Positions 36,642-57,075 of a stretch of 64,000 nucleotides of DNA are shown one piece after another. The notes under the pieces were generated by a model, which saw nothing but the letters and a program-made list of their open reading frames with translations, was not told the origin of the DNA and made no database searches. Position 1 is the first letter of the stretch, and each line of letters begins with the position of its first letter. The stretch is taken from NCBI GenBank assembly GCA_963803975.1, contig CAWDOY010000054.1:127607-191606 (forward strand), given 5' to 3'. The DNA comes from an uncultured delta proteobacterium (GTDB taxonomy: Bacteria > Desulfobacterota > WTBG01 > CAIYCZ01). Both the position numbers and the translations under genes were made by a program.

Positions 36642-36737
36642 AAAACTCTAAATACTAAGCACTAAATTCTAAACAGGCAGTTTTGAAATTTGAATTTAGG
36701 ATTTGTTTAGGATTTCGATATTCGAATTTAGAAATTT
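36642..36737. repeat. AT-rich heptamer tandem plus inverted repeat
   Basis: aaactctaaatactaagcactaaattctaaac ... tttgaatttaggatttgtttaggatttcgatattcgaatttag. Confidence 0.65.
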
Positions 36738-36756
36738 ACCATGGAGGTAACATGCA

Positions 36757-38749: not shown

Positions 38750-38753
38750 AAAC

Positions 38754-38836
38754 AAGTACCGAGTGCTGAGACACGAGTACTGAGTAGCAGTAAACCGCTC
38801 AGTCACCCAGTCACTCAGCACTCAGAACTCAGTACT
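38754..38836. repeat. Heptamer (GAGTACT/CTCAGCA-like) tandem plus inverted repeat
   Basis: aagtaccgagtgctgagacacgagtactgagt ... ctcagtcacccagtcactcagcactcagaactcagtactt. Confidence 0.7.
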
Positions 38837-38861
38837 TATTTATAGACAGGAGGTACCAACA

Positions 38862-41067
38862 GTGTCAAAAATCATAGCATCTGCAGCTATTCGAGGAGCC
38901 CATAAGATAGCAGCGCGCGTGGAAAAAAAGTATGCAGAGGTCTTGCAGAAGTACGGGCCTGAAAAGGAGATCGGGTTCCCCGATACCGCGTATTACCTGC
39001 CGATTATTTACGCCATGCTCGGCATCCCGGTAAAGAACCTGGGAGACTGCCAGCTGGTGTTTCAGCGGGCGCGCAGGCTTCTTCCTCCCCCGGTGCATGA
39101 AAAAACGCATCTGCCCTATCTTGCTCCGGCGCTTGATGCCGGCATGGCAACGCTTTTTTATGAGGAGATTGAAGAAGCGATCCGCTACCTCGAGCAGCCT
39201 GATTTTTACCTGCGGGGTGAAGAAGTGACTGATGACAACATCTGGCTGGGAGCGGCCAACGACGTCATTATGAGAAAGCGCGGCGTTGAGTTTGTGGACG
39301 GCACTGCCCCCGGATTTGCCGCGGTGGTCGGCGCGGCCCCGGACAAGGAGACCGCGGCCAAGATTGCCCATGAGCTGCAGCTGAAAAATTTATACGTCTT
39401 TATGGGCGCGGAGAACAATGGCGTCCGATTTTCCCAGCAACTGGTGGAGGCTGATGTCCAGATCGGATGGAACACGCGCCTGGTATCCTTCGGCCCTGAC
39501 GTGTCAGCCTGCGTATTTGCCCTTGGCTTTGCGTCACGCGCGGCCATGGCCTTCGGCGGCGTTGCGCCGGGAGACTTCAGGAAAAACCTCATTTACAATA
39601 AGGACCGCATCTTTGCCTTTGTGCTGGCGCTCGGGTTTGTCTCTGATGAGTGGTATGCCAATGCAGCGGGTGCCATCAATTACGGGTTCCCGGTCATTGC
39701 CGATACGCCCATTCCCGAAGTGCTTCCCACCGGCATCTGCACCTATGAGCACGTGGTATCCAATATTCCCCATGACCAGATGGTAGCCAAGGCCATTGAG
39801 GTGCGCGGCCTGAAAGTTACGCGTGACCGAGGTTCCGATACCGCTGGCCTACGGCCCGGCCTTTGAAGGAGAGCGGGTGCGCGGTGAGGATATCTGCCTT
39901 GAGTGCGGCGGCGGCAGGACCCAGATGGTTGAATTTTCAACGCTGAAGCGCATGGATGAAGTGGAGGACGGCAAGATTGAAATCGTCGGTCCGGATATTA
40001 CTGATGTTCCGGTCGGCTCGAAACTTCCCCTTGCTATTTATGTCGGCGTTGCCGGCCGCCAGATGCAGGAAGATTTTCTCCCCATCCTGGAACGGCAGAT
40101 ACACCACCTGGTCAACTACGCCCAGGGGCTCATGCACATCGGGCAGCGCGATATCGCCTGGGTGCGCATAGCAAAGCAGGCTGTGGAAAAGGGCTTCTCG
40201 CTGAAGCACATCGGAACCATCCTGCATGCCATGTACCACAAGGACTTCGGCAAAATTGTGGACAAGGTGCAGGTGACCATATACACCGAGCAGGAAAAGG
40301 TCATGGAAGTGCTGAAAGAAGCCCGCGACACCTTTAAGAAGCGCGATGAACGGATCGCCGACCTTGCCGACGAGAGCGAAAACACCTTCTACTCCTGCAC
40401 CCTGTGCCAGTCCTTTGCCCCGTCGCACGTGTGCGTGGTAACGCCCGAGCGCACCGGGCTGTGCGGCGCCTACAACTGGCTTGACTGCAAGGCTGCCTTT
40501 GAGATCAACCCCACCGGCCCCAACCAGCCCATAGAAAAGGGCGCGGTTCTTGAAGACCGGCTCGGCCAGTGGGAAGGGGTGAGCGGCTTTGTCAAGCAGG
40601 CCTCCCGCGGCAAAGTGGAGGTGGTGAGCGCCTACAGCATTCTCACCAACCCCATGACCTCATGCGGCTGCTTTGAGTGCATTGCTGCCGTGCTTGATAA
40701 ATGTAACGGCGTCATGACCGTGGACCGGGACTACCGGGGCGAAACTCCCTGCGGCATGAAGTTTACGACCCTTGCCGGCTCTGTGGGAGGCGGCGCGGTT
40801 ACCCCCGGCTTTGTGGGACACAGCAAGCACTTTATCGGTTCCAAGAAATTTATTCGCGCCGAGGGCGGCATCAAGCGCCTGGTCTGGATGCCCAAACAGC
40901 TCAAGGAAGATCTGCGGGAAAAGCTCAATGAGCAGGGCAAACTGCTGGGCATTGAAAATATCGCGGACAAAATCGCTGATGAGACCGTGGGCATTACCCA
41001 GGAGGAAATCCTTCCCTTCCTGAAGGAGAAAGAACATCCGGCCCTCACCATGGAGCCGCTGGTTTAG
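38862..41067 (+). CDS. acsB: Acetyl-CoA synthase, frameshift near 39820
   Basis: FPDTAYYLP, FYSCTLCQSFAP.HVC..CGA, PMTSCGCFEC, GG..TPGF. Confidence 0.96.
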
Positions 41068-41191
41068 ACAGAAGGGGTAAAGCGGTCAGCAGTCAGTTAT
41101 TCAAGGGGCCAAGTGATGGCGAAAACTGACCTTGAACCCTGGAACCGCATGAGTCCTTGAACACCTTATATTCTATAGAGGAGATTGAATA

Positions 41192-42542
41192 ATGGCCCTA
41201 TCCGGAATGGACATCTTTAAACTGCTGCCGAAGACTAACTGCCAGGAGTGCGGTGTTCCCACCTGCCTGGCCTTTGCCATGAAGCTTGCAGCAGGCCAGG
41301 CAGAGCTTGCCTCCTGCCCGTATGTGTCCGAGGATGCGCGGGCAAAGCTCGAGGAGGCATCGGCTCCGCCGATCCGGCCGGTAACCATCGGCTCCGGCGA
41401 GGCGGCGCTCAAGGTGGGCGGCGAGAACGTTATTTTCCGGCATGAAAAGACTTTTGTCAACAAGCCGGGCATCGCGCTGCTTTTAACCGATGCCATGGAC
41501 GACGCGCAGCTTGACGAAAAGCTCAAGCGCTTCAAAGAGCTGCAGTATGAGCGCGTGGGCCTGACGCTGAAAGCTGACTGCGTTGCGCTCAAGGAGACAG
41601 CAAACGACGGGAAGAAGTTTTCCGCGCTGGTGGAGAAGGCAAAGAGAGCGGGTGCTTTAAACCTGATCCTGATGAGCGAGAAGCCGGAGATACTCGCCGC
41701 GGCAGTTGCCGCGTGCAAAGAGCTGCGGCCGCTCCTGTACGCTGCCTGCAACGGCAACGCCGAGGCCCTGGGCAAGCTGGCAAAAGAGAACTCCTGCCCG
41801 CTCGCGGTAAAGGGAAAAAATCTGGATGAGATTGCGGAGATGACGAATAAGCTTACCGCCCTGGGGCTCAAGGACCTGGTCATTGATACCGGCGCCCGCC
41901 AGCTGAGACGGCTGTTTCAGGACCACGTGGCGCTGCGCAGGGCGGCGCTCACCAATAAATTCCGGCCGCTGGGGTATCCCACCATCGTCTTTCCCTGCGA
42001 GATGACCGATGACCCGCTGAAAGAGGCGCTCATTGCTTCAACCTTTGTCCCCAAGTATGGCGGCATCCTGGTGATGTCTGATCTCACCGGGCAGAACCTT
42101 TTTCCCGCTGACGGTGCAGCGCATGAATATCTACACTGACCCGCAGCGGCCCATGGCAACGAGCGAGGGCATTTATGAGATAAACAACCCGGATGAGAAC
42201 TCACCGGTTATTATCACCAGCAACTTCTCCCTTACCTACTTTATCGTGTCAGGGGAAGTGGAGTCGAGCAGGGTGCCCACCTGGATGCTCATAAAAGATA
42301 CCGAGGGACTATCGGTCCTCACGGCCTGGGCAGCCGGAAAATTTGTGGCTGACGCGATTGCGCCGTTTGTCAAGAAGTGCGGCATCGCGGACAAGGTAAA
42401 ACACCGCACCCTGGTGATACCCGGCGCTGCCGCGAGCATCAGCGGCGAGCTTGACGAGGAGCTTCCGGACTGGACGATTCGCATCGGGCCGCGGGAAGCA
42501 GCGCACCTCACGCCATTTTTAAAGAACTGGAAAGCGGAGTAG
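41192..42542 (+). CDS. acsC: Corrinoid Fe-S protein large subunit, frameshift near 42105
   Basis: LPKTNCQECGVPTCLAFA..CP, RHEKTF, IYTDPQRP, SNFSLTY, GLSVLTAWAAGKF. Confidence 0.96.
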
Positions 42543-42656: not shown

Positions 42657-43544
42657 ATGATTGCAACTATTGCTGAGAGCATTAACATAATGTCCAAGAC
42701 CATCGGGCCGGCCATGAAGGAAAAGAATGCCAAGCCGATCCAGGAGATGGCCATAGCCGAGGCCGCGGCCGGTGCGACCTTTCTTGACGTGAATATCGGG
42801 CCGGCGCGCAAGGGCGGCGCTGAGATGATGGAGTGGCTGGTGAAAACCATCCACGAGGTGGTGGCTCTGCCCCTGTCCCTTGACACCACCAACATCGAGG
42901 CAATGGAGGCAGGTTTGAAAGCTCACAAAAAAGGCGGCAGGCCCCTGGTCAACTCCGTCTCCTGCCAGCCGGACCGGCTTGAGCCGGGCCTTGAGCTGGT
43001 GAAAAAATATAACGCGCTCATGGTCGGGCTGCTCTGGGGCGCTGACGGCATGCCGCGCGACGCCAACGAGCGGGCAGCGCTGGCGGTGGATATTATCTAC
43101 AAGGCAAATGAAAAGGGCATCCCCAATGAGGATATTTTCATTGACCCGATCGCAACGCCGGTGAGCGGCGAGATCAACCAGGTGCTTGCCTGCACCGAGT
43201 TCCTCGGCATGCTGCAGGACATCGGCCCGGGGTGCAAATCAACGGTCGGGCTTTCCAATGTCTCAAACGGTGCCCCTGCGGAGCTGCGGCCCTTTTTAAA
43301 CCGGCCGTATATGCTGATGCTGCACAAGCAGGGGCTCTACTCGGCCATTGTTGATGCCTATGATAAAGAGATCATGGCGCTTGCCAAAGGGGAGATGCCG
43401 GAGATCTATCAGCTGGTGTGCACGGTGATGGACGGGCAGCCTGTTGACATGGCCGCTCTTTCGAAAAAGGAACAGCAGTACGTGAAGACGGTCAATGTGC
43501 TCATGGGCAAAAACCTCTATTCTCACTCATGGCTTGAGATATAG
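42657..43544 (+). CDS. acsE: Methyl-THF:corrinoid Fe-S protein methyltransferase
   Basis: IAESINIMSK, LDVNIGP, LSLDTTN, VNS, FIDP, GLSNVSNG. Confidence 0.92.
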   Translation: MIATIAESINIMSKTIGPAMKEKNAKPIQEMAIAEAAAGATFLDVNIGPARKGGAEMMEWLVKTIHEVVALPLSLDTTNIEAMEAGLKAHKKGGRPLVNSVSCQPDRLEPGLELVKKYNALMVGLLWGADGMPRDANERAALAVDIIYKANEKGIPNEDIFIDPIATPVSGEINQVLACTEFLGMLQDIGPGCKSTVGLSNVSNGAPAELRPFLNRPYMLMLHKQGLYSAIVDAYDKEIMALAKGEMPEIYQLVCTVMDGQPVDMAALSKKEQQYVKTVNVLMGKNLYSHSWLEI

Positions 43545-43582
43545 CGGTTATCCGTAGCTCGGCTGCAGCCGACAGAGCAAGC

Positions 43583-43635
43583 AAAGAGGGCCGGATTGTC
43601 TCATGGGTTATATTCAGTCACGGCTCTCTTTTTTT
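43583..43635 (+). terminator. Intrinsic terminator after acsE
   Basis: aagagggccg ... cggctctctt followed by a T run. Confidence 0.6.
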
Positions 43636-43744
43636 AATGTTATGGACATCACCGGCATAATTTGTTAATGCAACTACCGGCCTGCATTTTTCTGTCGTAC
43701 GAGGAGAGGTTCTCCGCACTTTTTATTGTCAGGGATGAGCTGCT

Positions 43745-44419
43745 ATGTATGAATTAGCCCGCGGCCCGCTGATGTGGGCTGCTACGGTTATTTTCCTGTC
43801 AGGGATCATATACCGTTCCATCCAGCTGTATCTGCTCACCAGGAAAAAAGAGCGCGTTCTTTTTTCCGCTGCTCCGGTAAAGCCGAAAGAGCGCACCCCC
43901 GAGGAGCGCAAGATGGATTTGATTGTTGCCGTCAGGAATTCGCTGCTCGGCACCCATCCCATCATGGCCATCATCTCAACAGTTTTTCACACCTTTATAT
44001 TTATTATCCCCATTTTTCTCCTGGGCCACAACCTTCTGCTATATGAGTCATGGGGAATCTCTCTCTTCAGCCTTCCTGACGGGCTCTGTGACACGCTGAC
44101 CGCGGTATTCGTGCTGATCGGGCTTTTTTTCCTGCTGCGCCGCATGATCGTGCCCCAGGTGCGCATCATCAGCACGGCGTATGATTATCTGGTGCTGGTC
44201 ATTACCGTCGCGCCGTTTCTTACCGGCTTTTTCGCCTACCACCAGTGGTTTGATTACAAGACCGTCATTACCATCCACATGCTGGTGGGCGAGCTCATGC
44301 TCATTGCCATTCCGTTCACCAAGATCGGTCACATGATCTTTTTCTTTTTTGTGAGAATTCTTATCGGCAGCGAGCACAGCTTCTGGCGCGGCAACAGGGC
44401 GTGGCAGGGCAAAGTATAA
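43745..44419 (+). CDS. NarI-type membrane cytochrome b (HmcE/TmcC/DsrM-like)
   Basis: About 5 TM; His pairs FHTFIFIIPIFLLGH and IHMLVGELMLIAIPFTKIGH; FFLLRR, PFLTGF. Confidence 0.8.
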   Translation: MYELARGPLMWAATVIFLSGIIYRSIQLYLLTRKKERVLFSAAPVKPKERTPEERKMDLIVAVRNSLLGTHPIMAIISTVFHTFIFIIPIFLLGHNLLLYESWGISLFSLPDGLCDTLTAVFVLIGLFFLLRRMIVPQVRIISTAYDYLVLVITVAPFLTGFFAYHQWFDYKTVITIHMLVGELMLIAIPFTKIGHMIFFFFVRILIGSEHSFWRGNRAWQGKV

Positions 44420-44450
44420 ATAATTGTTTATCTGACAAAAGGACGGATTC

Positions 44451-44879
44451 GTGCCTTCAGGACGCAATAAACCGGTAGATACTGAAAAAATAAAAGCAAC
44501 GCTTGAGCAGAACAGGGGAAAGATAAAGCTCTCCCGGGCAGCGTGCGCCAGCTGCAGCCTGTGCGCCGAGAGCTGTTTTCTCTACCGGGGCAATAACCGC
44601 GATCCCCGCTACATGCCGTCCTATAAATGGCTCAGCTCTCTCGGTAAAATCTACAAGAAGCGGGGCAACGTGGACCGGGACTTCCTGGAAAAGACCCGGG
44701 AGAATATCTGGAAGAACTGCGTTCTGTGCATGCGCTGCTACTGCCCCTTCGGCATTGATATTCCCGGCCTGATCGGGCTGGCCCGGAGCATCTACCGCTC
44801 CCAGGGCATTTACGGGATCTATCCCTACACGACCGGCGCACCGGAGGCAGACAATGCCGGCGAGGACAGCGGAAAGTAG
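44451..44879 (+). CDS. Short 2x[4Fe-4S] protein resembling the N-terminal domain of HmcF/TmcB/DsrK (HdrC-like), with no CCG domain
   Basis: CASCSLCAESC..YMPSYK; CVLCMRCYCPFGIDIP; ends at 142 aa. Confidence 0.75.
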   Translation: MPSGRNKPVDTEKIKATLEQNRGKIKLSRAACASCSLCAESCFLYRGNNRDPRYMPSYKWLSSLGKIYKKRGNVDRDFLEKTRENIWKNCVLCMRCYCPFGIDIPGLIGLARSIYRSQGIYGIYPYTTGAPEADNAGEDSGK

Positions 44880-44929
44880 CAGGCGCGGCTGTTTAACAAC
44901 ACAACCATGAACGGTAATGGAGCACGGCA

Positions 44930-45613
44930 ATGGTTATCGCAGAAGTAAAACCAATAGCAGAAATAATGGAATTAATCAGACCGTATAAAAAGGTTTTAAA
45001 TACCGGGTGCGGGGGCTGTGTCGCGGTCTGCCTGGGCGGGGGCCAGAAAGAGGTGGATACGCTCAACACCCGGATTGAACTGACCTGCCGGGAGCAGAAG
45101 ATTCCCCTTGAGATCAGCGGCTTTACGGTGGAGCGCCAGTGCGACATGCAGTTTAACGCCGAGCTTGACCAGATGGTGGGGCCGTATGATGCGCTGCTCT
45201 CCATGGCCTGCGGAGCCGGCATCCAGTTTCTTGCCGAGCGCTATCCGACTAAGCCGGTACTGCCCGCAGTGAACACCACCTTTGTCGGCGTCAACAAAGA
45301 AATCGGCTGGTACGAAGAGCGCTGCCAGTCCTGCGGCGACTGCGTGCTGGGCGTAACCGGCGGCATCTGCCCGGTCACCATGTGCGCCAAGTCCCTGTTC
45401 AACGGCCCCTGCGGCGGCCCCCAGGACGGCCACTGCGAGGTGGACAAGGATACGCCCTGCGCCTGGATACAGATCCATGACCGGCTGAAAGCCCAGGGCA
45501 GGCTGGAAAATATCCTGAAGGTATTCCCCGCGCGCGAGTGGCAGAACCAGGTTCAGGGCAAGCTGCTGCTGGAGGAGTACCGGAGCAGGTATGTAAAGGA
45601 AGCAAAAAGGTAG
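44930..45613 (+). CDS. metV: MetV (MTHFR-associated Cys-rich subunit), copy 1
   Basis: GCGGCVAVC.GGG, ERQC, ACGAG, CQSCGDC..TGGICP..CAKSLFNGPCGG..CE..CAW. Confidence 0.9.
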   Translation: MVIAEVKPIAEIMELIRPYKKVLNTGCGGCVAVCLGGGQKEVDTLNTRIELTCREQKIPLEISGFTVERQCDMQFNAELDQMVGPYDALLSMACGAGIQFLAERYPTKPVLPAVNTTFVGVNKEIGWYEERCQSCGDCVLGVTGGICPVTMCAKSLFNGPCGGPQDGHCEVDKDTPCAWIQIHDRLKAQGRLENILKVFPAREWQNQVQGKLLLEEYRSRYVKEAKR

Positions 45614-45718
45614 ATATGATAACAAGAGGACTGAAGATGCAGGAACGAAGCACGATGGCAAATAGCTGTCAGTGTGCTTTATCTACTGCGTGCTACGATC
45701 ACGAGGGAAGCAAGTATT

Positions 45719-46648
45719 ATGAAAGCAGGAAGCAATTTAGAAAAGGTTCTCAGTGCCGGGCATTTCGCGGTGACCGGCGAGCTCGGGCCGCCCCGCGGCG
45801 CTGACGCTGCCGCGGTCAGGGAAAAGACCCAGTACCTGAAAGGCATGGTTGACGCTGTCAACATCACCGACAACCAGACCGCTGTGGTCAGGATGGCGAG
45901 CTGGGCGGCATCCCTCATCCTCATCCAGGAGGGGCTTGAGCCGAACTACCAGATGGTGTGCCGGGACCGGAACCGGCTGGCGATGCAGGCCGACGTCCTC
46001 GGCGCCTATGCTCTCGGCATCAAAAACATGCTCTGCCTGTCAGGGGACCATCAGAAGTTCGGTGACCACCCTAAAAGCAAAAAAGTGTTTGACATAGATT
46101 CCATGCAGCTCATCAGCATGGTGAAGAAGATGCGGGATGAAAAAAAATTCCAGGGCGGGGAAGAGATAACCGTGCCGCCGCAGATGTTCATCGGCGCAGC
46201 GGAAAACCCGTTCGGCGAGCCCTATGAATTCAGGGTGCTGCGGCTTGCAAAAAAGATAGAAGCAGGCGCGGACTTCATCCAGACCCAGTGCATTTATAAT
46301 ATGGACCGGTTCCGAACCTGGGTCAGGCAGTCGGTGGACATGGGACTTACGGAAAAGATTTATATCCTGGCGGGGGTCACCCCCTTCAAGAGCGTGGGCA
46401 TGGCAAAGTACATGCAGAAAAATGTGCCGGGCCTTGATGTTCCCGACGCGCTGATAAAGCGCCTCGAAGGCGTTGACAAGAAGGACCAGGCCAAAGAGGG
46501 CATTGCCATGTGCTGCGAGCAGATCCAGGAATTCAGGGAAATGAAAGGCGTGGCCGGCGTGCACATTATGGCCATTGAGTGGGAAAAGCGGGTCCCGGAG
46601 ATTGTGGAGAAGGCCAAGCTTCTGCCGCGGCCGAAGATGGAAGGGTAA
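45719..46648 (+). CDS. metF: Methylene-THF reductase MetF, copy 1
   Basis: FAVTGELGPP, NITDNQ, CRDRNRLAMQ, CLSGDH, GADFIQTQ, GVHIMA. Confidence 0.92.
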   Translation: MKAGSNLEKVLSAGHFAVTGELGPPRGADAAAVREKTQYLKGMVDAVNITDNQTAVVRMASWAASLILIQEGLEPNYQMVCRDRNRLAMQADVLGAYALGIKNMLCLSGDHQKFGDHPKSKKVFDIDSMQLISMVKKMRDEKKFQGGEEITVPPQMFIGAAENPFGEPYEFRVLRLAKKIEAGADFIQTQCIYNMDRFRTWVRQSVDMGLTEKIYILAGVTPFKSVGMAKYMQKNVPGLDVPDALIKRLEGVDKKDQAKEGIAMCCEQIQEFREMKGVAGVHIMAIEWEKRVPEIVEKAKLLPRPKMEG

Positions 46649-46799
46649 AGGATTCAAGGGTCCAAGGGGTCAAGCCGGGGTGGACAGTGCGAGGCCGATA
46701 ACGAGTCTTGAGACACTGTTCACGAGCCCATAACCCCCATGCGCTCAATGAGTCATCAATATAAAATTTGGGAAAGTCCAGTAACAAAACCTTTTGAAC

Positions 46800-48637
46800 A
46801 TGAATAAAAAGCTGCTGACAATTTTCCTGTTATTTTGTTGTCTGCTCTGCAGCCTGATAATCCGGGATGCAGGTGCGCTGCAGAGAAGAATGCAGCCTCT
46901 GCGCAGAAACCGCCTCTCGGCCAGGACCTCCACGCTGCGATACTGGCAGGGGACGTTTACCCCGCTGAACAGCCGATCTATGTTTCAATTTCAGCGGTGT
47001 TTCAGGATCTGAAGCGGCCCCCGGTCAGATTTTATCATGACCGGCACGCCCGGGCTCTCGGGGCTGATGGCTGCGAGGCATGCCATCCCCGGGATGCTGC
47101 CGGGAAAATTATCTACAGCTTTCCCATCAAAGAAAACACCCGGTCAGCAGAGACGCTGATGAACTCCTATCACAATGCCTGCATCGGCTGCCACAATAAG
47201 CGCAGGATTGAGGGGAAGTCTTCCGGCGCGGTAACCTGCGGGGAATGCCACGCCGAGGTTACGGGTTATCACAGCATTGAATACCTGCCGCGCATGCCTG
47301 AGTATTATGAGCCGCTGCGCGACACCTATCACCGCGACTGCATCGCCTGCCACAAGGACCCGGCCAAAACAGCCCATGATGCAACAAAGCTTGACTGGAA
47401 AAGTTTCTACATCAGGGAAAACTACCGGCTTGAGACTTCATGGCCGAAAGTGGTGATGGACTATAAGCTTCACTACCGGCATGAGCAGGCGCTGGAAAGA
47501 AAATGCGAGCTCTGCCACCGCACCCCCAGCGGGGAGGAAGGCATAATGGTATATGTAAAGGGCACCGAGTCCTCGTGCCGCGACTGCCATAAAGATAAGG
47601 ACGCGGACAACCAGCTCTCCTACCGGCACCTGTCTCATGACGAATGCATCGGCTGCCACCTTGAGCGGCACCAGGAAAAGAAAAAGGCCGGGCCGTTTTA
47701 CTGCAGCGAATGCCATACCGGTATTGAGAGCAGCACTGAAGAGCTGCTCTACATCCCCCGCGAGGAGCGCAATCAGCCGCAGCAGGTGCTCATTGCAGAC
47801 GCGGGAGCGCGGATGCAGGGCGTGCCCTTTGACCACCAGCTCCACGAGTTACAGACCACCACCTGCCAGGCATGCCACCATGACACGCTGGAGAAGTGCA
47901 GCGCCTGCCACACGCAGCAGGGGAGCCTTGAGGGTGACTGGGTGCCCCTGGCAGAGGCGTATCACGAGAGAACTTCTTCCTGGAGCTGTGTCGGCTGCCA
48001 TGAGACGAAGAAGCAGGCGCCGGACTGCGCCGGATGCCACAGCCAGATGAAGCCCGAGCTGAGCGAGTCATCATGCCTGACCTGTCACAGCGGCTCACTG
48101 GAAGCGGTCAGCGGCTTTGTTCCGCTGCCGGACACAACCCTTCCTGACATGGAAGAGCTGTCCGGAGAGCTTGCGTTTACGCTCGCTGGATTTACCTGGC
48201 TGCGGCTTGAAATGCCGAAGATCAGCGCTCCTGAAGCACTGCTGCCGGACAAGACGCAGGAGAAGCTGCAGGTCGCGCTGCTGGAAAAATCCTATGACCC
48301 GTCGGAATTCCCACACCTGAAAATTTTAAAAAAGCTGACTGATATTTCCAACAACAACAAGCTGTCCCGCTATTACCATGCAGAAGAGACCACCCTGTGC
48401 GCGGGCTGCCATCACCTGGGGCCGCTTGAGGTGAAGAAGACTCCGCCAGCGTGCAGCTCCTGCCACACCCGCAAGAATGTCCCGGAGAAACAGACCCCGA
48501 CCCTGCTGGGCGCCTATCACCGCCAGTGCCTGGGCTGTCACAAGGCAATGGGCGGGGAGGAGAAGGAAAAACCCCAGACCTGCGTTGGGTGCCACAAGGA
48601 GAAACCTGCCGCGGCAGCGCAGGCAGCGGCCCGGTAG
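46800..48637 (+). CDS. hmcA: High-molecular-weight multiheme cytochrome c3-family protein (HmcA-like), 17 CxxCH; frameshift after the signal peptide (about 46880)
   Basis: Signal peptide MNKKLLTIFLLF.. in an adjacent frame; RPPVRFYHDRH, VPFDHQLH and EFPHLKI cytochrome c3-type segments; 17 CxxCH counted by eye. Confidence 0.85.
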
Positions 48638-48653
48638 GACCGGGAACACATCT

Positions 48654-49583
48654 ATGATACACACCAGACGCACATTTTTAAAACAGTTCTCTGGAACCGC
48701 CGGAATGCTCCTGCTGGGAAGCAGGGCGCGGGCCGAGGATCCCTCTTCTCAGGACCGCACCGATGGTTTCGGGGTGCTGGTGGACACAACCCTGTGCGTC
48801 GGCTGCCGGAGCTGTGAGCAGGCCTGCAGCGAGGTGAATACGGACCTGCCCCGCAAGACCCTCGCGCATTTCAAGGATCTATCGATACTGGAAGAGAAGC
48901 GCCGGATGGATTTTTCCACCTACACGGTGGTGAACCGCTATTATAATACTATACCGGAAGCAGACCAGCAGCCGGTGTTTGCAAAATTCCAGTGCATGCA
49001 TTGCCTGCGGCCGGCCTGTAAGTCCGCCTGCATCGTGGGCGCCTTCAGCAGCGAGTCAACCGGCGCGGTGCAGTACGACTCCTGGAAGTGCATCGGCTGC
49101 CGCTACTGCATGGCGGCATGCCCGTTTCAGGTGCCGGCCTATGAGTACCGCAACGCGTTCACCCCGAAGGTGCGGAAGTGCACCTTCTGTCAGCCGCGCA
49201 TCAGTGCCGGAGAACTGCCGGCCTGCGTGCAGGCATGTCCCATGGAGGTTATGACCTTTGGCCCGCGGGAAGAGCTGCTCAGTGATGCGCGGGCAAAGCT
49301 TGCCGCCCATCCTGAACGCTATGTCCAGCACATTTACGGGGAGAGTGAAGTGGGCGGGACCTCCTGGCTCTACCTGTCGAGCATCCCGTTCGAGCAGATC
49401 GGGCTGCCCAAACTCGGCTATCACCCGACGCCGGGCTATACCGAGCCCATCCAGCACGCGATCTTTAAATATTTCCTGCCGCCGCTCGGGCTCTATTCGC
49501 TGCTCGGCGGCCTCATGTGGTTTTTCAACAAGCGGCAGAAAAAAACTGAGACACCCGATTTCAGGGGACTGCACACATCATGA
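48654..49583 (+). CDS. hmcB: Tat-exported 4x[4Fe-4S] protein with a C-terminal TM (HmcB/HybA-like)
   Basis: TRRTFLK Tat motif; CVGCRSCEQAC, CMHC..PAC..AC, CIGCRYCMAACP, KCTFC..PACVQACP; IYGESEVGGTSWLYL. Confidence 0.85.
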   Translation: MIHTRRTFLKQFSGTAGMLLLGSRARAEDPSSQDRTDGFGVLVDTTLCVGCRSCEQACSEVNTDLPRKTLAHFKDLSILEEKRRMDFSTYTVVNRYYNTIPEADQQPVFAKFQCMHCLRPACKSACIVGAFSSESTGAVQYDSWKCIGCRYCMAACPFQVPAYEYRNAFTPKVRKCTFCQPRISAGELPACVQACPMEVMTFGPREELLSDARAKLAAHPERYVQHIYGESEVGGTSWLYLSSIPFEQIGLPKLGYHPTPGYTEPIQHAIFKYFLPPLGLYSLLGGLMWFFNKRQKKTETPDFRGLHTS

Positions 49584-50800
49584 GCGCTCATGAAAACGCT
49601 GCTCCAATTGACACGCCGTTTTTCACCAGGGGCGTACTGCTTCTCTGCGCGGTCATGGTGACCGGAATCGGCTTCGGGCTGTACCGCATGCTGTTCAGCC
49701 TGGCGGCGGTCACCAACCTGAATGACCAGTATCCCCTGGGCCTGTGGATCGGCATTGACGTGGCAAGCGGCGTGGCACTTGCTGCCGGCGGCTTCACCAC
49801 CGGCGCCCTGGTCTATATTTTCAACCGCGAGCATTTCCACGCCATAATCCGCCCGGCGCTGCTCACCGCGATGTTCGGCTACACCTTTGTGGCCATCGGG
49901 CTGTTATTTGACCTTGGCCGCTGGTACAATGTCTGGCACCCGGTCATCCCCTTCATGTGGCAGGGAAATTCGGTGCTGTTTGAAGTGGGCATCTGCGTGG
50001 TAATATATTTAAACGTGCTCTACATCGAGTTTGTCCCCATTGTCACTGAGCGGTTTATCGGCAGGGTGAACCTGCCCGGGTTCCTCGCGCGGCTGAATGA
50101 TCCGGTGGATTTGCTGCTCAGGTTCATGGATTATTTTCTGGGGAAAATAATGTTTCTGTTTATCATTGCCGGCGTGGTGCTGTCGTGCCTGCATCAGTCA
50201 TCCCTGGGCACGCTCATGGTGATTGCCCCGTACAAGCTGCACCCGCTCTACTTTTCGCTCCTGTCGCCGCTGTTCTTTCTTTCATCAGCCATGGCCGTGG
50301 GATTCCCCATGGTGATATTCGAGTCATTGCTTGCAGCGCGCTCCTTCGGCCGCAAGCCGGAGATGCATGTCCTCACGCCGCTGGCCCGCTACATTCCCTG
50401 GATCATGGGGATTTACATTGCCCTGAAAATCGGCGACATGCTGTACCGCGGCACCTATGTGTATCTCTTTGAAAACACGCTGCCGGTCGGCATGTTCTGG
50501 ATTGAATTCGGGCTGCTGACAATGCTGCCGTTCTTTCTGTTTTTATCTCCCGATGTCAGGCGCTCGCCCGGCTGGCTGTTTACCGCAGCGCTCATGTATA
50601 TCTGCGGCGTCATCCTGAACCGCAGCACGGTCTTCTTTATTGCCTATCAGCCCGTATATGGTGAAAATGCCTATATCCCAGCTCTTGGAGAATTTGCCCT
50701 CACCATCGGCCTGATCGCTGCCCTGATGATTGTCTATCGTATTTTTGTTACGCTCTTGCCGGTGCTCCCGCTGAAAGATGCTGAACATGGTGGGCATTAA
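49580..50800 (+). CDS. hmcC: NrfD/HybB-family membrane subunit (HmcC-like)
   Basis: TNLNDQYPLGLWIGIDV..GVALAAGGF, RPALLT, DLGR, SVLFEV, LHQSSLG. Confidence 0.88.
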   Translation: MSAHENAAPIDTPFFTRGVLLLCAVMVTGIGFGLYRMLFSLAAVTNLNDQYPLGLWIGIDVASGVALAAGGFTTGALVYIFNREHFHAIIRPALLTAMFGYTFVAIGLLFDLGRWYNVWHPVIPFMWQGNSVLFEVGICVVIYLNVLYIEFVPIVTERFIGRVNLPGFLARLNDPVDLLLRFMDYFLGKIMFLFIIAGVVLSCLHQSSLGTLMVIAPYKLHPLYFSLLSPLFFLSSAMAVGFPMVIFESLLAARSFGRKPEMHVLTPLARYIPWIMGIYIALKIGDMLYRGTYVYLFENTLPVGMFWIEFGLLTMLPFFLFLSPDVRRSPGWLFTAALMYICGVILNRSTVFFIAYQPVYGENAYIPALGEFALTIGLIAALMIVYRIFVTLLPVLPLKDAEHGGH

Positions 50801-51016
50801 TTAAGAGGCCGCACGCTCCTTCCCGCATACCTGTCCTGTTTTACCCGGAAACCCTGCCATCTCGACATGAAATACCTGCATGCGCTCATTGTAAAATATA
50901 TGTAAATTTGCCTGCGGGTCTCTTTTATTTTATTTTCTAAAGTGTTATAGAGTATTGGTCTTGCTCATTGCGCCAGACCGCGCGTGAGAAAAAATGTGAA
51001 AGAACGGATAGTTGCT

Positions 51017-52928
51017 ATGGTACCAAAGATTGAACACGGAAAGAAGATAACTGCCGCGGTGCTGGTTGTTGGTGCCGGCATTGCAGGCATGCAGGCGGCG
51101 CTGGACCTGGCAGAAGCGGGTTTTAAAGTCTATCTGGTGGAGAATGAAGCGCCCGGCCGGAAGCGGTCAGCCAAAGGCGGCGCTGCCGCGCGTGGTTTTC
51201 TTTGCAGCATCTCTTCAAAGCTGCTCGCGGTACAACTGAACAATAATATAGAGCTGATTGAAAAAGCCCGCATTGAAGGCATAGACGGCGTTGCGGGGAA
51301 TTTTCAGGTATTGCTCGGCAGTGCAGCGCCTTCATCGGTCAAAGACAAAGCCGCTGCAACAAAAAAGAACGCGGCTGAAAAACTGCGCAGCATCGCAGCG
51401 GGAGCAGTCATTTTTGCACCGGGATTTAATTCTCTGGCAGCGCCATCAGGATACGATTTTCAAGCAGAGCTGCAGGCGCATGCTGAAAAGCATGGTTTCA
51501 GCATCGCTGGTACAACGATGATAACGGAAAAAGAGCAGCTTCCCCTTGCTACCTCACGGCCGGGTATTTTTGCGGCCGGCGGAAGCGGGGCGCCTGCGGT
51601 CAGGGACGCTCTCATCCAAGGCAGCTGCGCCGCAGCACTGGCCGCGGAACTGCTTTCCCCGGCTCGCGGCGCGCTGGTACGCGAAAAAAAATATCCCGCG
51701 GAAATGAGCGTTGCGGCAGACGAGCCCTCCATCGGCATTTTTATCTGCAGGCATATGCTGTCCGTGAAAAAGGCAGCTGAAGGTATTATTGCGGGCGCAC
51801 AGAAGATGAGCGCGGTGGTTCATGCTGAAGCGCTGCCGGAACTCTGCTCGCTGGCAAGTCTACAAGCGGGTGCAGGAGGCCATTGAAGAACAGGGCCTCA
51901 ACCGGGTGGTCGCCGTAACCTGCAACCCGGAAGCGCATGCACCGCTCTACCAGGAAGCCCTGGCTGAGGCAGGACTTAACCGCTATCTGCTGGAGATGCC
52001 GGACCGTGTATCCGCGGGGCACGCTTTGGATGTTCTTCGTATGGCGGTTGCCCGAACGCGGAAGCTTGAGCCGCTTAAAGAAGTAACAAGCGACGTGGTG
52101 CAGAGCGGGCTGGTCATCGGCAGCGGGGTGTCGGCGTTGACCGCTGCGCTTTCACTTGCCAACCAGGGCTTTGAGATTTACCTGGTGGAGCAGGGACCGT
52201 CTGATGGTTCTGACGCAGCGCGCAGCCTGCAGAAGAAGGTTGCAGGGCAGAATAAGATAAAAATATTTTCTCATGCACTCATAACCAGTTTTGCCGGCCA
52301 TCCGGGAAGCTATGTCACGACTATTACGGTGAACGGGGCGGCAGAGGTACTCAAGCACGGCATTGTCATTATCGAGACGAGCCAGGCGCGTGATACGCTT
52401 GCCGCGCTCTTGAAAATTCCCGTGGCGGCAGACGGCAGCTATGTGCAGCCGTCTGCATTGCAACCGCTTGACCTTGCCTGCGGCGGCATGTTCGCCTGCG
52501 GCAACGGGGATGTGAGTAATAGCATTATTCAGGGACTTGCGGCAGCAGCGCGCGCGGCAACAATTCTTGCAAAGCGGGAGCTGGTGCTCAGCAGCATTGT
52601 CGCCGTGGTAGATCCAGAACGCTGTGTAGCCTGCCTCACCTGCGTCCGGGAGTGCCCCTACCATGCGCCGGCAATTTCAGAGGAGCGGGTTTCCTTCATT
52701 GAACCTGCTGAATGCCGGGGCTGCGGAATCTGCGTCAGCGCGTGCCCGCGCAGGGCCATAGAGCTTAAGCATTGCACTGACGAACAGATACTGGCGGAAC
52801 TTGCGGCTTGCATGGATGCCGGAACTGCTGATATTCAATCTGAAACTCAGGAACTCACGATAGAGAAAATAAAAACTTTCCTGATTTTTGAGTTCCAGAT
52901 TATAATTATATTCTTTGAGAAAACATAG
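51017..52928 (+). CDS. Degenerate HdrA-like flavoprotein (two Rossmann modules plus C-terminal ferredoxin), frameshift near 51860
   Basis: VLVVGAGIAGMQAALDLA; TSRPGIFAAG; IGIFIC; LNRVVAVTC.P; GLNRYLLE; CVACLTCVRECP/CRGCGICVSACP. Confidence 0.7.
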
Positions 52929-52992
52929 AGAAAATCTCTGTGTGCTCTGTGGTTAAGTATTGATAAGACCTCCGGAGCTGAATGGAGATTTC

Positions 52993-53410
52993 ATGAAAAA
53001 ATTTGAACCGACTGTTATCGCATTTTCCTGCATGTTCTGCGCAGGCTGCGAACCGGCAGATGCCAAACCTGAAAAGTCAATGAAGGCTGCGCAGCTGAGG
53101 GTTATACGCCTTCACTGCCTGGGAAAAATTAATTCCATGCATGTGCTCAAAGCTTTTGAAAACGGGGCTGACGCGGTGCTGGTGGCGGGAGGTGCGTGCC
53201 GGTTTATGGAAGGCCTGGCAGTTGCGCAGAAACAGATCGAGTATACCCGGAAGCTTCTTGAAGAGCTTGGCATCGAGCCGCAGCGGCTGGAGCTGGCGGC
53301 CGGTGAGCCGGACAGCGGGAAGCACATTTACCGAAGCTGCGGAAGGAATTATAAAGCGGGTTCGCGCATTGGGCCCAAACCCGCTCATGAAGGCGAAAAA
53401 AGCAGCATAA
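52993..53410 (+). CDS. mvhD: MvhD/FlpD-like [2Fe-2S] protein, divergent, frameshift near 53310
   Basis: FEPTVIAFSC, RVIRLHCLGKI, AFENGADAVLVAG, LLEELGIEPQRL; LGPNPL in the second frame. Confidence 0.78.
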
Positions 53411-53585
53411 AAGCTGGTAGCCTCAGAGCTCACAGAGGATACTCAGTGAACTCAATAAATATTTGAGCAGAATGTTTCACTAAGGAACACATTTTCAGAG
53501 ACGGCTGAGCGGTTGTAAACAGTATTTTAATTATTTTACACAGAATTCTCAGTGCTCTCGGTGGTTCTACAAGGGAGAAGTAATC

Positions 53586-54254
53586 ATGATAGTTGCCCAG
53601 CGAAAAGGCATAGAAGAAGTGAAAAAGATGGTGGAGGGGAAATCCCGGATCCTGATAGCCGGCTGCGGAACCTGCGTTGCGGTGTGCATGGCGGGCGGCG
53701 AGCGCGAGGTAAGCATTCTGGCGAGCATGCTGCGCATGGCAGTGAAGCTTGACAGCGGCAGGGACATTGAGGTCGCCGAGATAACCATGGAGCGCCAGTG
53801 CGACCGGGAGTTCATAGAGCCCTTTGACAAGCAGATGAGGGAATACGACGCGGTCATCTCCACTGCCTGCGGTATCGGCGTCCAGTTTCTCGCGGATTTT
53901 CTTGGGGATATACCGGTGGTGCCCGGCGTGAATACAAAGTTTTTAGGCTCCAATGAAGGCGGCGGCACCTGGTTTGAGCGCTGCAGGGCATGCGGGGAGT
54001 GCGTGCTGGGAGAAACAGGCGGCATCTGCCCCATTACCATCTGCGCAAAGAACCTGCTCAACGGGCCGTGCGGCGGCACCAACAAGGGCAAGTGCGAGGT
54101 TGACAAGGACAAGGACTGCGCCTGGACCCTCATCTACCGGCGTCTGGAAAAGCTTGGCGCGCTTGACAATATCCGGAAGATATTTCCGCCGAAAAATTAT
54201 CACGCGCAGACGCACCCGTCACGAATGATTCATGAAGCGTACAAAAAGGATTAG
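53586..54254 (+). CDS. metV: MetV, copy 2
   Basis: GCGTCVAVCMAGG, ERQC, ACGIG, CRACGEC..GGICP..CAKNLLNGPCGG..CE..CAW. Confidence 0.9.
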   Translation: MIVAQRKGIEEVKKMVEGKSRILIAGCGTCVAVCMAGGEREVSILASMLRMAVKLDSGRDIEVAEITMERQCDREFIEPFDKQMREYDAVISTACGIGVQFLADFLGDIPVVPGVNTKFLGSNEGGGTWFERCRACGECVLGETGGICPITICAKNLLNGPCGGTNKGKCEVDKDKDCAWTLIYRRLEKLGALDNIRKIFPPKNYHAQTHPSRMIHEAYKKD

Positions 54255-54272
54255 ATAAAGGGTTTTAATTAT

Positions 54273-54397
54273 ACGACACAGTAAAAAGATCCAGAGGCAA
54301 GGCGCGCAAATCCGAGGGAATGAGGCGTATCTAAACGATACGCTGCAATGACTGAGGATGCAGCGGAACGCGGCATATGGACTTTTTACAAAGTCGT
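54273..54397. mobile_element. MITE-like element, copy 3 (inverted orientation, different terminal IRs)
   Basis: IR acgacacagtaaaaag / ctttttacaaagtcgt; reverse complement contains cgcctcattcc..ggatttgcgcgccttgcctctggatctttt, shared with copies 1 and 2. Confidence 0.65.
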
Positions 54398-54414
54398 CAG
54401 GAAGAGGAAAAGAA

Positions 54415-55314
54415 ATGACTGAAACGAGTAAACTGAAACAGGCCTTTGCATCAGGAAAGTTTGTGGTATCAGGTGAGGTCGGGCCTCCCAAGGGCACCAA
54501 TATTGACGAGATGCTGCAGCACATTGACCTGCTGAAAGACAAGGTTGACGCGCTCAATGTCACCGACAACCAGAGTTCAGTGATGCGCATCTCATCGCTT
54601 GCCGTGTGCAAGCTCATCAAGGAGCACGGCGGCGAACCCATCCTGCAGCTGACCTGCAGGGACCGGAACCGGCTGGCGCTGCAGTCAGAGCTGCTCAGCG
54701 CAAGCATTCTGGGCGTTAACAATGTGCTGTGCCTGACCGGTGATTACATTACCATCGGCGACCATGCCGAGGCCAAGCCGGTGTTTGACCTTGATTCGGT
54801 CCAGCTGATCCAAGCGCTGCGGCAGATGGAAAAGGGAAAAGACCTGGCTGGCAATGACCTGCAGGGATCGCCGCAGTTTTTCGCGGGTGCGGTGGTGACG
54901 CCGGAGGCAGACCCCATTGAGCCGCAGCTGCTCAAGTTTGAAAAAAAGGTGAAGGTCGGGGCCGAGTTTTTTCAGACCCAGGCCATCTATGATATAGGGA
55001 ATTTCAAAAAGTTCATGCAGTACGCACGGCAGTTCAAGGTGAAGATCATGGCGGGTATTGTGCTGCTCACGTCAGCGGGAATGGCCCGGTATATGAATGA
55101 GAACGTACCGGGGATTTTTGTGCCGCAGGAGCTGATTGATGAGATGGCCGGCGCAGGAAAAGGAAAGGCCCTGGAAAAGGGTATTGAAATTGCCGGCCGC
55201 ATGATTAAGCAGCTGAAACAGGAAAACATCTGTGACGGCGTGCACATCATGGCCATCGGCAAGGAAGCGGTTATCCCGGACATCCTCTCGGCAGCGGGGC
55301 TGAACGGCGCATAA
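54415..55314 (+). CDS. metF: Methylene-THF reductase MetF, copy 2
   Basis: FVVSGEVGPPKG, NVTDNQ, CRDRNRLALQ, CLTGD, GAEFFQTQ, GVHIMA. Confidence 0.92.
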   Translation: MTETSKLKQAFASGKFVVSGEVGPPKGTNIDEMLQHIDLLKDKVDALNVTDNQSSVMRISSLAVCKLIKEHGGEPILQLTCRDRNRLALQSELLSASILGVNNVLCLTGDYITIGDHAEAKPVFDLDSVQLIQALRQMEKGKDLAGNDLQGSPQFFAGAVVTPEADPIEPQLLKFEKKVKVGAEFFQTQAIYDIGNFKKFMQYARQFKVKIMAGIVLLTSAGMARYMNENVPGIFVPQELIDEMAGAGKGKALEKGIEIAGRMIKQLKQENICDGVHIMAIGKEAVIPDILSAAGLNGA

Positions 55315-55698: not shown

Positions 55699-57075
55699 CA
55701 GATTTGTCCAAAAACGGATTTAAATTGAAAAAGTCCTCCCAATAGGGCACGGTAGTTTTGACAAGACAAACCAAACCCACAAAGGAGGACCGACTATATG
55801 ATAAGACATGCCAGCTTGTTTAGTCAACTGATTGCTTTGTTTAATCGTCATCAGTTTTATAGCCTGGTGGCTCAGCATAAAGCCGAACGGTATGCAAAAG
55901 AATTTAATTCTTGGGATCAGTTTGTTGCCATGCTGTTCTGTCAACTTGCTCAAGCAAAAAGTATCAGAGAAATATGCGGCGGCCTTGCCTGTTGTATAGG
56001 TAAACTGCGTCATTTGGGAATGCAGACAGCCCCTAAAAAGTCGACCCTTTCCTATGCCAACGCCCAACGACCGTGGCAGATGTATAAGGACTTGTTCTAT
56101 CAAACCCTTGCTACCTGCAAAACAGCCGCCCCCGGTAAGCACAAATTCAGATTCAACAACAGACTGCTCTCCCTTGACAGTAGCACCATATCATTATGCT
56201 TGACGCTGTTTCCATGGGCAAAATTTCGCCGGACAAAAGGCGCCGTTAAACTGCATCTGTTGCTTGACCATGACGGCTATCTGCCCACCTATGCCTATAT
56301 CTCCAATGGCAAAAAACATGATGTTACCGTTGCCCGTACCGTGCCCCTTGCCGCAGGGTCTATTGTGGCCATGGACCGGGGATACAATGATTATAAACTG
56401 TTTGCCTCCTGGACAGCACAAGGCATTTTCTTTGTTACACGGCTCAAAGACAATGCTGATTATGCGGTTGTTTCATCCAATGCTGTTCCCCAAAACCGGA
56501 ACATACTATCGGATCAACTTATCCATTTCACTGGATTCTATGCCCAAAAGGACTGCCCCCACATCCTTCGCAGAGTTGTCGCCTGGGACGAAGAAAAACA
56601 GCAGGCAATCGTTCTGCTTACCAATCACCTTGCGTTTGGTTCAACGACGATCTCAGCAATTTACAAAGACCGGTGGCAAATTGAACTGTTTTTTAAAGCT
56701 CTGAAACAAAATCTGAAAATAAAAACGTTTGTCGGTACTACGGACAATGCTTTGTATATTCAAATTTGGACAGCACTGATTGCAATACTGCTGATTAAAT
56801 ACCTTCAGTTCAAGTCAAAGTTCGATTGGTCGCTGTCAAATCTGGTAGCCTTTCTCAGGTGGAACCTGTTTACCTATCGCGACTTATGGCAATGGATTGA
56901 CAGTCCGTTTGATGTGTTACCCTGGGAACCTCAATCTGTCCAACTGCAATTGCCTTTGGCCGTTTGTGGACAGCATTAAGTGGATAACCTGAAATGCAAA
57001 ACCATCGTTCTCTCTTATTGTTACTCGGGTTTTGAGGTGTTATGCCTCTTTTAAGGTTTATCTTGGACAGTAATG
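55699..57075 (+). mobile_element. IS4-family insertion sequence
   Basis: Imperfect IRs cagatttgtccaaaaa / tatcttggacagtaatg around the transposase; no flanking direct repeat. Confidence 0.75.
55798..56979 (+). CDS. IS4-family DDE transposase (DUF4372 N-terminus)
   Basis: LDSSTI, KLHLLLD, MDRGY, IYKDRWQIELFFKALKQ (YREK motif). Confidence 0.93.
   Translation: MIRHASLFSQLIALFNRHQFYSLVAQHKAERYAKEFNSWDQFVAMLFCQLAQAKSIREICGGLACCIGKLRHLGMQTAPKKSTLSYANAQRPWQMYKDLFYQTLATCKTAAPGKHKFRFNNRLLSLDSSTISLCLTLFPWAKFRRTKGAVKLHLLLDHDGYLPTYAYISNGKKHDVTVARTVPLAAGSIVAMDRGYNDYKLFASWTAQGIFFVTRLKDNADYAVVSSNAVPQNRNILSDQLIHFTGFYAQKDCPHILRRVVAWDEEKQQAIVLLTNHLAFGSTTISAIYKDRWQIELFFKALKQNLKIKTFVGTTDNALYIQIWTALIAILLIKYLQFKSKFDWSLSNLVAFLRWNLFTYRDLWQWIDSPFDVLPWEPQSVQLQLPLAVCGQH

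Follow-up and report, generated by a model that had tools for sequence, protein, structure and literature searches.

Four types of methylenetetrahydrofolate reductase (MTHFR) have been distinguished, among them type II (MetVF), type III (RnfC2-MetVF, Acetobacterium) and type IV (HdrCBA-MvhD-MetVF, Moorella), and in the accessible text of that classification none of the four contains an integral membrane cytochrome (PMC8760232). Membrane coupling of the MTHFR step has been an open question since 1977 (PMC8578096, PMC8760232). A cytochrome b- or quinone-linked enzyme has been proposed for decades, with no defined complex named in the accessible parts of two sources (PMC8578096, PMC6895022), and a 2021 review states, in the portion available, that genome sequences gave no evidence for a membrane localisation of MTHFR (PMC8578096). 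In acetate oxidisers, the fate of the -200 mV electrons of methyl-tetrahydrofolate (methyl-THF) is equally open (PMC6895022). Here we analyse a 64,000-nucleotide stretch of DNA (the window) from an uncultured delta proteobacterium (GTDB lineage Desulfobacterota; WTBG01; CAIYCZ01; assembly GCA_963803975.1, contig CAWDOY010000054.1, positions 127,607 to 191,606), in which metV and metF lie inside a block of seven genes, the module, whose other five genes are predicted to encode a membrane-spanning cytochrome chain.

On the membrane side, HmcABCDEF of Desulfovibrio vulgaris resembles the module in its 16-haem HmcA, HmcB-type iron-sulfur (FeS) protein, NrfD-type HmcC and NarI-type cytochrome b, and the N-terminus of HmcF is homologous to the small FeS protein of the module. 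The module differs in the absence of CCG domains, carrying a 142-amino acid (aa) protein where the full HmcF (about 460 aa) combines FeS and CCG domains, in its gene order (E-F'-metV-metF-A-B-C, with no hmcD seen), in a 17th haem motif and in HmcB and HmcC that fall into a clade separate from three canonical Hmc loci (support 100/100); its host also gave no dsrA match. With TmcABCD the module shares a cytochrome b that scores best as TmcC, though below the cut-off, and a short FeS protein that is nearest to TmcB-like proteins, whereas full-length TmcB and TmcD are lacking and the partner is HmcABC, not tetrahaem TmcA. For DsrMKJOP, electron cryo-microscopy places quinol at the NrfD subunit DsrP, from where electrons pass via DsrO, DsrJ, DsrM and DsrK to the CCG site (bioRxiv 10.64898/2026.08.25.746951, accessible text). 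By analogy, the module would comprise an NrfD protein, an FeS protein, a multihaem cytochrome c, a NarI-type dihaem protein, a helical FeS domain and a catalytic unit in the same order; however, it has MetVF instead of the CCG domain of DsrK, folate instead of the DsrC trisulfide and 17 haems instead of 3, and thermodynamics favour quinone reduction.

As in other MetVF-type MTHFRs, metV and metF are adjacent and the Cys residues of MetV are conserved. In contrast to type III, there is no RnfC2 in the module (MetVF copy 1 is flanked by the FeS adaptor and HmcA, with no rnfC2 adjacent) and no RnfD match in the genome. In contrast to type IV, the module has no HdrCBA and its MetV lies outside the Hdr-type group; a second pair further downstream, metV2-metF2, is of the type IV kind, but without hdrC and hdrB and with an eroded hdrA. 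A dedicated integral membrane cytochrome chain as partner and a MetV clade of its own set the module apart from types II to IV. For Thermacetogenium phaeum, a quinone-linked MTHFR was proposed and activity with anthraquinone-2,6-disulfonate and benzyl viologen was found in membranes; according to the accessible text, the bridge there is a hypothetical HdrABC and the cluster holds no membrane subunit, whereas here membrane subunits surround metVF (PMC6895022). The block is neither an Hmc nor a Tmc complex, having no CCG domain and no TmcD, nor a type III or type IV MTHFR.

The initial annotation had stated that it knew of no described Hmc-MetVF complex, and the full-text literature searched agrees: we found no Tmc/Hmc-MetVF unit there, subscription journals lying mostly outside the search, so that a mention in those is possible. 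The link is likewise not found in the accessible text of PMC13343851, PMC13416013, PMC2702500 and PMC10553843. A partial precedent is Tmc2 (tmcA2B2C2) of Desulfococcus multivorans DSM 2059, for which the supplement of PMC5109826 lists a TmcB2 of 127 aa beside a 445-aa TmcB1. The accessible text of the same paper calls TmcB2 a 50-kDa protein and treats Tmc2 as a second Tmc, with no tie to MetV or MetF. Judged by listed length, not by sequence, TmcB2 matches the short form, and the short-TmcB core seems to be present in this sulfate reducer, which is in culture, where it is called Tmc2.

In the window, all seven genes lie on the plus strand in the places and order that the initial annotation had given, as confirmed by coordinates and family scans of the window proteins: a TmcC/HmcE-type cytochrome b, a 142-aa FeS protein, metV, metF, an HmcA with 17 CxxCH motifs, HmcB and an NrfD-type HmcC (Table 1). 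The FeS protein aligns only to positions 37-152 of the 457-position HmcF model and is thus the stand-alone N-terminal domain of TmcB/HmcF without CCG domains. As the assembly carries several frameshifts, an artefact had to be excluded. The gene cannot run on into a CCG domain because only 50 bp separate its stop codon from metV, and the junction is spanned with 0 gaps by independent contigs of two other runs, X1 (44693-45016) and X19 (44502-45016). Together with the short frames in relatives, this rules out that the short gene is a frameshift product, and the earlier proposal that the HmcF/TmcB equivalent is cut back to its ferredoxin domain holds.

The short form is not peculiar to this genome. 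In a phylum sample of 401 genomes, each of the 29 best profile matches (>=180 bits) sits in an open frame of 134-201 aa; for the 18 that rank after them (153-135 bits), frame length is 441-515 aa. The frame ends at most 90 residues past the second Cys motif in 80/80 GTDB loci. In a tree of 109 rows and 126 columns, 94 short forms fall on one side and 15 full-length rows, the number left after a 70% coverage filter, on the other (SH-like approximate likelihood ratio test, SH-aLRT, 100). A protein search restricted to 71-273 residues returned 1,233 clusters at E <= 0.001. Eight Cys are invariant in the alignment of the short protein, and its second Cys motif reads CxxCxxCxCP, two residues shorter than in full-length TmcB. 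It therefore likely holds the two [4Fe-4S] clusters that had been assigned to it, with the reservation that the second motif is not canonical. A structure model (mean predicted local distance difference test score 83) resembles the C-terminal helical FeS domain of FrdB/SdhB and HdrC with Z 8.5-7.1, which is near the level that the tool rates as common, in a list led by FeS proteins of one type. A sequence search of the PDB matched neither the short FeS protein nor MetV, and Foldseek with models of both returned nothing at E <= 0.001.

Truncation and association with MetV go together. Among close relatives (n=40), the short FeS gene is intact in 16 and broken in one, and metV follows 3' in 15 of the 16. 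Of the 16, eight show the full order through hmcC, six agree up to the contig end, one lacks the upstream cytochrome b and one lacks metVF after the FeS gene. A GTDB scan confirmed 328 relatives; in the best 80 loci, a set that shares members with the close relatives and is not independent, the neighbours include cytochrome b (76), metV (75) and metV or metF (77), with a tetrahaem c3 as periplasmic partner at 43 loci and a 16-haem cytochrome at 26. These genes occur in at least five orders, including c3-V-b-FeS-F, F-b-FeS-c3-V, F-b-FeS-V-A-B-C, V-b-FeS-c3 and, in the window, b-FeS-V-F-A-B-C. As a control, metV adjoins 19/20 short-FeS loci of the phylum sample, the 20th stopping at a contig edge, and 0/20 regions around full-length TmcB/HmcF, picked from the next-best profile matches. 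The module is present in 29/401 genomes across the phylum, and records with the labels Planctomycetota, Lentisphaerota, Myxococcota and Acidobacteriota have it too. Of 33 module genomes searched, 31 gave a match to acetyl-CoA synthase (ACS). The synteny anticipated across Desulfobacterota is thus conserved, and the module is real and widespread and apparently undescribed. Taken together, the sequences define as the conserved unit cytochrome b, short FeS protein and MetV, usually with MetF, which pairs with either tetrahaem c3 or HmcABC. Of the initial view that MetVF is embedded in an Hmc/Tmc complex, the Tmc-type core stands; the Hmc part is exchangeable with the commoner c3.

Local variants of this arrangement were seen. 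In one genus, metV is separated from the short FeS gene by a frame resembling a REP-associated tyrosine transposase (L053:10453-11016, L072:10387-10968). At L067:8279-20393 and similar Syntrophales-like loci, a c3-type module has a different metF gene on either side, and genes for a PAS histidine kinase and hdrC-hdrB-hdrA come after it. The locus L056:8282-13376, which belongs to group B (see below), reads metF-cytochrome b-FeS-metV-hmcB-hmcC with no cytochrome c gene between.

MetV of the module is distinct as well. Thirteen Cys are invariant or nearly so, and 58 module MetV separate from 19 Hdr-type MetV (SH-aLRT 99) with the signature residues G29 and Q39. Each of the top 30 of 616 matches sits in a module, and no second MetV match at E <= 1e-40 was obtained in 17 of the 30 genomes concerned; the MetV and FeS profiles were built from module members, which favours these in the ranking, and related genomes are not independent. 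VIA-align of the MetV N-terminus gave generic Rossmann-like matches only (Z up to 9.4). MetF is less exclusive, since proteins 72-75% identical to module MetF also occur inside Hdr-type clusters, which rules out that MetF copy 1 is always Hmc-linked. Copies 1 and 2 in the window are 44% (MetV) and 40% (MetF) identical. The locus L160:5593-11826 reads hdrA-mvhD-split HdrD-like (FeS and CCG)-metV-metF, with a MetF 72% identical to that of the module, and MetVF of this lineage therefore swaps partners. A predicted complex of cytochrome b, short FeS protein and MetV with four 4Fe-4S clusters scored 0.05 against a mark of 0.32; it was built from 58-row alignments for each protein, without MetF, three proteins plus ligand being unlike the calibration and controls not being folded, and we count it neither way.

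The membrane cytochrome has TmcC as its top match, with a Pfam NarI gamma match at E 1e-4 and a profile match to NarI chains in the PDB at E 2e-4. H82, H95, H178 and H196 are invariant in 58/58 aligned rows. The His spacing is 13, compared with 10 in NarI, and the quinone-site region aligns so poorly that its comparison is unreliable.

On the periplasmic side, HmcA passes NF045713; 16 of its 17 CxxCH align with canonical HmcA motifs and one is extra. In HmcABC-containing loci, two groups can be separated, group A with the window and group B with eight loci, and the motif map finds the extra CxxCH in 9/9 group-A rows and 0/6 others. HmcB and HmcC are kept in every locus of the window's clade that is long enough, bar one with a broken FeS gene. 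The last gene scores higher as HybB than as HmcC. Using the residue lists for the quinone site and channels of Escherichia coli HybB in the accessible text of PMC8076601, HmcC is identical to HybB at 4/6 quinone-site, 10/13 N-side and 4/6 P-side residues, with two more conservative. It keeps HybB D58, D109, S129, E133, R89, Y99, E148, H184 and R329, and the retained residues include all five whose mutation impaired Hyd-2.

With these parts, electrons would pass from the flavin of MetF to the FeS clusters of MetV, the short FeS adaptor, the two haems of cytochrome b, HmcA, HmcB and HmcC, and finally to menaquinone. We infer a physical assembly with this order of carriers, this use of quinone and an oxidative direction, that is, one membrane-spanning chain built like DsrMKJOP or Hmc in which MetVF would replace the CCG disulfide-reducing domain. 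That MetVF takes the place of the catalytic module had been proposed before, and it is supported by the conserved linkage, the short FeS clade, the parental TmcB operon described below and the MetV clade. We consider MetVF very probably wired to the membrane chain. With a lesser, moderate degree of confidence, we read the seven genes as a DsrMKJOP-like methyl-THF:menaquinone oxidoreductase that runs oxidatively in this host. The electrons of methyl-THF oxidation, which are incompatible with NAD, would in this way reach the quinone pool and the outlets that it has in the periplasm. Since HmcA may in addition trade electrons with soluble carriers of the periplasm, the chain is probably reversible.

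Energetics and gene content of the host suit the oxidative direction. Electron transfer from methyl-THF (-200 mV) to menaquinone (-74 mV) yields -24 kJ/mol, and the reverse needs a driving force (potentials from the accessible text of PMC8760232 and PMC8578096). The 98% complete genome has mqnC over cut-off and shows no dsrA over cut-off and no RnfD or ackA match; tblastn of the genome found no TmcD. Outlets on the quinone side include a twin-arginine translocated (Tat) formate dehydrogenase with a HybAB-like anchor, genes resembling alternative complex III/Qrc with a cbb3 oxidase, three cytochrome-FeS-NrfD modules and numerous multihaem cytochromes. Oxidative use is favoured because of mqnC, these several outlets and the lack of dsrA, RnfD and ackA matches. 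Of the energy conservation in acetogenesis or electron flow in acetate oxidation envisaged at first, a menaquinone-reducing, oxidative role fits this host better and an acetogenic one less.

The same wiring could be used reductively, as a methylene-THF respiration in which electrons from periplasmic formate or H2 would reach HmcA or c3 and move inward via cytochrome b to methylene-THF, translocating two charges per turnover, with HmcBC as a side branch to the quinone pool. Such a scheme has long been proposed for cytochrome-containing acetogens (PMC8578096, in part), Tmc is described as an inward electron carrier in the accessible text of PMC5109826, and the host encodes a soluble tetrahaem cytochrome besides its Tat-type formate dehydrogenase. 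Transfer from formate or H2 to methylene-THF gives -45 or -41 kJ/mol, covering two charges at 120-180 mV (23-35 kJ/mol). We nevertheless regard this direction as unlikely: ackA, the only ATP-forming route looked for, has no match in the host genome, the host has no Tat hydrogenase small subunit over cut-off, and only 5/17 module genomes at class level do. Moreover, sulfate reducers from complete-oxidising lineages and Syntrophales-like bacteria, in which the pathway is expected to run oxidatively, account for many of the carriers. Somewhat less likely still is an export driven by the proton motive force, in which methyl-THF electrons would move outward via the b haems with the help of the membrane potential, attain about -300 to -350 mV in the periplasm and pass to formate dehydrogenase, hydrogenase or multihaem chains serving a syntrophic partner, bypassing menaquinone. 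Methyl-THF oxidation is a known barrier of syntrophic acetate oxidation (PMC6895022, in part), the c3 form (43 of the best 80 loci) has no NrfD subunit at all, some HmcBC hosts have no menaquinone marker match, and our host is rich in multihaem cytochromes, with up to 28 CxxCH; against this, HmcB and HmcC are kept in the clade of the window, HmcC retains quinone-site residues, and 16 of the 17 class-level genomes have an MqnC-family match (10 over cut-off; dsrA in 1). Least likely of all is mere co-regulation, that is, a soluble, ferredoxin- or flavin-linked type II MetVF encoded within the operon of a separate transmembrane complex that has another cytoplasmic partner. Purified MetVF enzymes are mostly soluble (PMC8760232, PMC8578096, in part), metF lies elsewhere in some cases, and at L036 the cytochrome b and FeS genes are kept without metVF; however, it is precisely the clade accompanied by metV in which the FeS protein has no catalytic domains any more, the four genes remain neighbours in at least five gene orders and in different phyla, and module MetV has its own signature residues.

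Several observations also weigh against an oxidative, menaquinone-reducing complex. No MqnC match was found in 3/8 group-A genomes outside the class and in 7/8 group-B genomes, and MenB is over cut-off in none of 5 tested genomes outside the class, all of these genomes being of unstated completeness; quinone coupling may therefore not be general. The core works without an NrfD subunit, since the commoner c3 form has none. The HybB residues are mostly kept in ordinary HmcC too and do not fix the direction. At L036, cytochrome b and short FeS genes follow acsE with no metVF after them, L037 has a broken FeS gene beside intact metVF, and L033 lacks cytochrome b on the upstream side. In 17/80 GTDB loci, some of them cut by contig ends, metF lies apart, as it does in 3/20 phylum-sample loci with intact flanks. 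The support for this assignment is at the level of sequence.

Comparison with genomes of the same class suggests how the module arose. The closest full-length relatives of the short FeS protein are TmcB-like and lie in tmcC-tmcB-tmcA clusters without metVF. A same-class genome (L038) has tmcD-tmcC-tmcB(442 aa)-hmcA-hmcB-hmcC and no metVF, with TmcB, TmcC, TmcD and HmcA over cut-offs, and an operon of this kind, with full-length TmcB in the same slot, is probably parental. HmcB of group A clusters with the L038 hybrid, and HmcB of group B clusters with the three canonical Hmc loci (100/100). Since these fall in different clades, HmcABC apparently joined the core twice; the FeS and MetV trees likewise separate the two groups. 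The trees behind this history are rooted at the midpoint and rest on sparse sampling. The type IV order acsE-hdrC-hdrB-hdrA(1487 aa)-mvhD-metV-metF is seen in a genome of the same family that does not have the module. In the window, the module stands between acsE and the Hdr-type cluster, from which hdrC and hdrB are missing. Its hdrA-like and mvhD-like genes have diverged from that genome much more strongly than metV2/metF2 have: the hdrA-like pieces are 29-47% identical to the HdrA there, and metV2/metF2 are 85-86% identical. This looks like displacement of an Hdr-type enzyme by the module in this lineage, with a possible decay of the type IV MTHFR at 50984-53466.

It is fairly probable that the module represents a fifth MTHFR type: a self-contained, DsrMKJOP-like membrane complex in which the CCG domain of TmcB gave way to MetVF and which acts as a direct methyl-THF:menaquinone (or :cytochrome c3) oxidoreductase. 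Its core would have arisen once, taken up HmcABC twice and spread across several phyla, and in the lineage of the window it would be displacing the Hdr-type enzyme. The module names candidate proteins for the long-proposed membrane link of MetVF. If the reading is true, no MTHFR step with chemiosmotic coupling would have been defined genetically before this one, which could serve both directions of the Wood-Ljungdahl pathway, and energy models of acetate oxidation and CO2 fixation by sediment anaerobes would need a new coupling site. Tmc2 makes the cultured D. multivorans a possible starting strain.

Table 1 Features of the module and its immediate surroundings in the window.
Feature	Position	Strand	Basis
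acsE, methyl-THF:corrinoid FeS protein methyltransferase (context; forms or consumes the MetVF substrate)	42657..43544	+	PF00809; NF040758 190 bits
Terminator-like hairpin with U-run, gap between acsE and module	43581..43637	+	-23.6 kcal/mol, z -3.56
Membrane cytochrome b of TmcC/HmcE type (NarI family), 224 aa, predicted to bind two haems	43745..44419	+	TmcC 193 bits (cut-off 240), HmcE 174 (275)
FeS adaptor of 142 aa, equivalent to the ferredoxin domain at the N-terminus of TmcB/HmcF on its own	44451..44879	+	HmcF positions 37-152 only
MetV, module-type clade, 227 aa	44930..45613	+	PF12225; signature G29, Q39
MetF, catalytic flavin subunit of MTHFR, 309 aa	45719..46648	+	PF02219 144 bits; PDB MTHFR matches E 8e-11
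HmcA-type periplasmic cytochrome c, 17 CxxCH	46800..48637	+	HmcA 451 bits > 400
HmcB/HybA-type Tat-exported FeS protein, 309 aa	48654..49583	+	HmcB 347 bits (cut-off 420), HybA 254 (263); twin-arginine start
HmcC/HybB-type membrane protein of the NrfD family, 406 aa, with a quinone site and a proton half-channel predicted	49580..50800	+	HybB 336 bits (cut-off 450), HmcC 255 (550)
Eroded hdrA-like (two frames) and mvhD-like genes (context)	50984..53466	+	29-47% identity to parts of 1487-aa HdrA of same-family genome
Second, Hdr-type metV2-metF2 pair (context)	53586..55314	+	PF12225, PF02219; groups with Hdr-linked MetV

Upstream, the module adjoins a Wood-Ljungdahl cluster (fhs, acsV, cooC, folD, acsD, cooS, acsB, acsC, acsE), and downstream it is followed by hdrA-like and mvhD-like genes and the second metV-metF pair (50984-55314). 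The gap between acsE and the cytochrome b gene measures 200 bp, and the gaps inside the block 31, 50, 105, 151, 16 and -4 bp. The hairpin in the former gap was matched in stability by 0/200 shuffles and is present in a same-genus relative; it is patchy among 13 other loci examined, and no hairpin of this kind was found in the three internal gaps tested. Because of this terminator-like structure, co-transcription of the module with the acs genes is doubtful, and the sequence suggests that the module can be its own transcription unit. A scan for sigma-70 promoters and terminators gave counts at chance level. Contigs of RNA libraries (runs X19, X20) cover the region; DNA carry-over is possible, so they are not evidence for expression, and contigs do not reveal whether the region is a single transcript.

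The corrected start codons are most likely ATG 45719 for metF, ATG 48654 for hmcB and ATG 46800 for hmcA. The signal-peptide region of hmcA is frameshifted in this assembly and forms one open frame in the same-genus relative. The cytochrome b, FeS and HmcA genes are each single copy in the genome. In the Wood-Ljungdahl cluster, acsV, cooS, acsB and acsC (31282-42542) are each broken into at least two frames; for acsC, one base at 42107/42111 is absent from two independent DNA runs, and these breaks are probably assembly errors. AcsD (35118-36440) has 440 aa, compared with about 500 aa in relatives and 312 positions in the acetogen model, and carries a C-terminal extension. An IS4-family transposase (55798-56979) lies directly 3' of metF2. 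At L036:3853-7026, the genes acsE, cytochrome b and short FeS are followed by a DUF3786 gene.

Elsewhere in the genome of the host, loci L184, L185 and L189 (contigs C19, C53) hold big multihaem cytochrome clusters beside cytochrome-FeS-NrfD modules, and extracellular electron transfer is possible on this gene content. At L189:2869-6290, an AprA-like flavoprotein adjoins a ferredoxin-nitrite/sulfite reductase and cysK; flavoprotein and reductase are both below dissimilatory cut-offs, and these genes probably serve assimilatory sulfate reduction.

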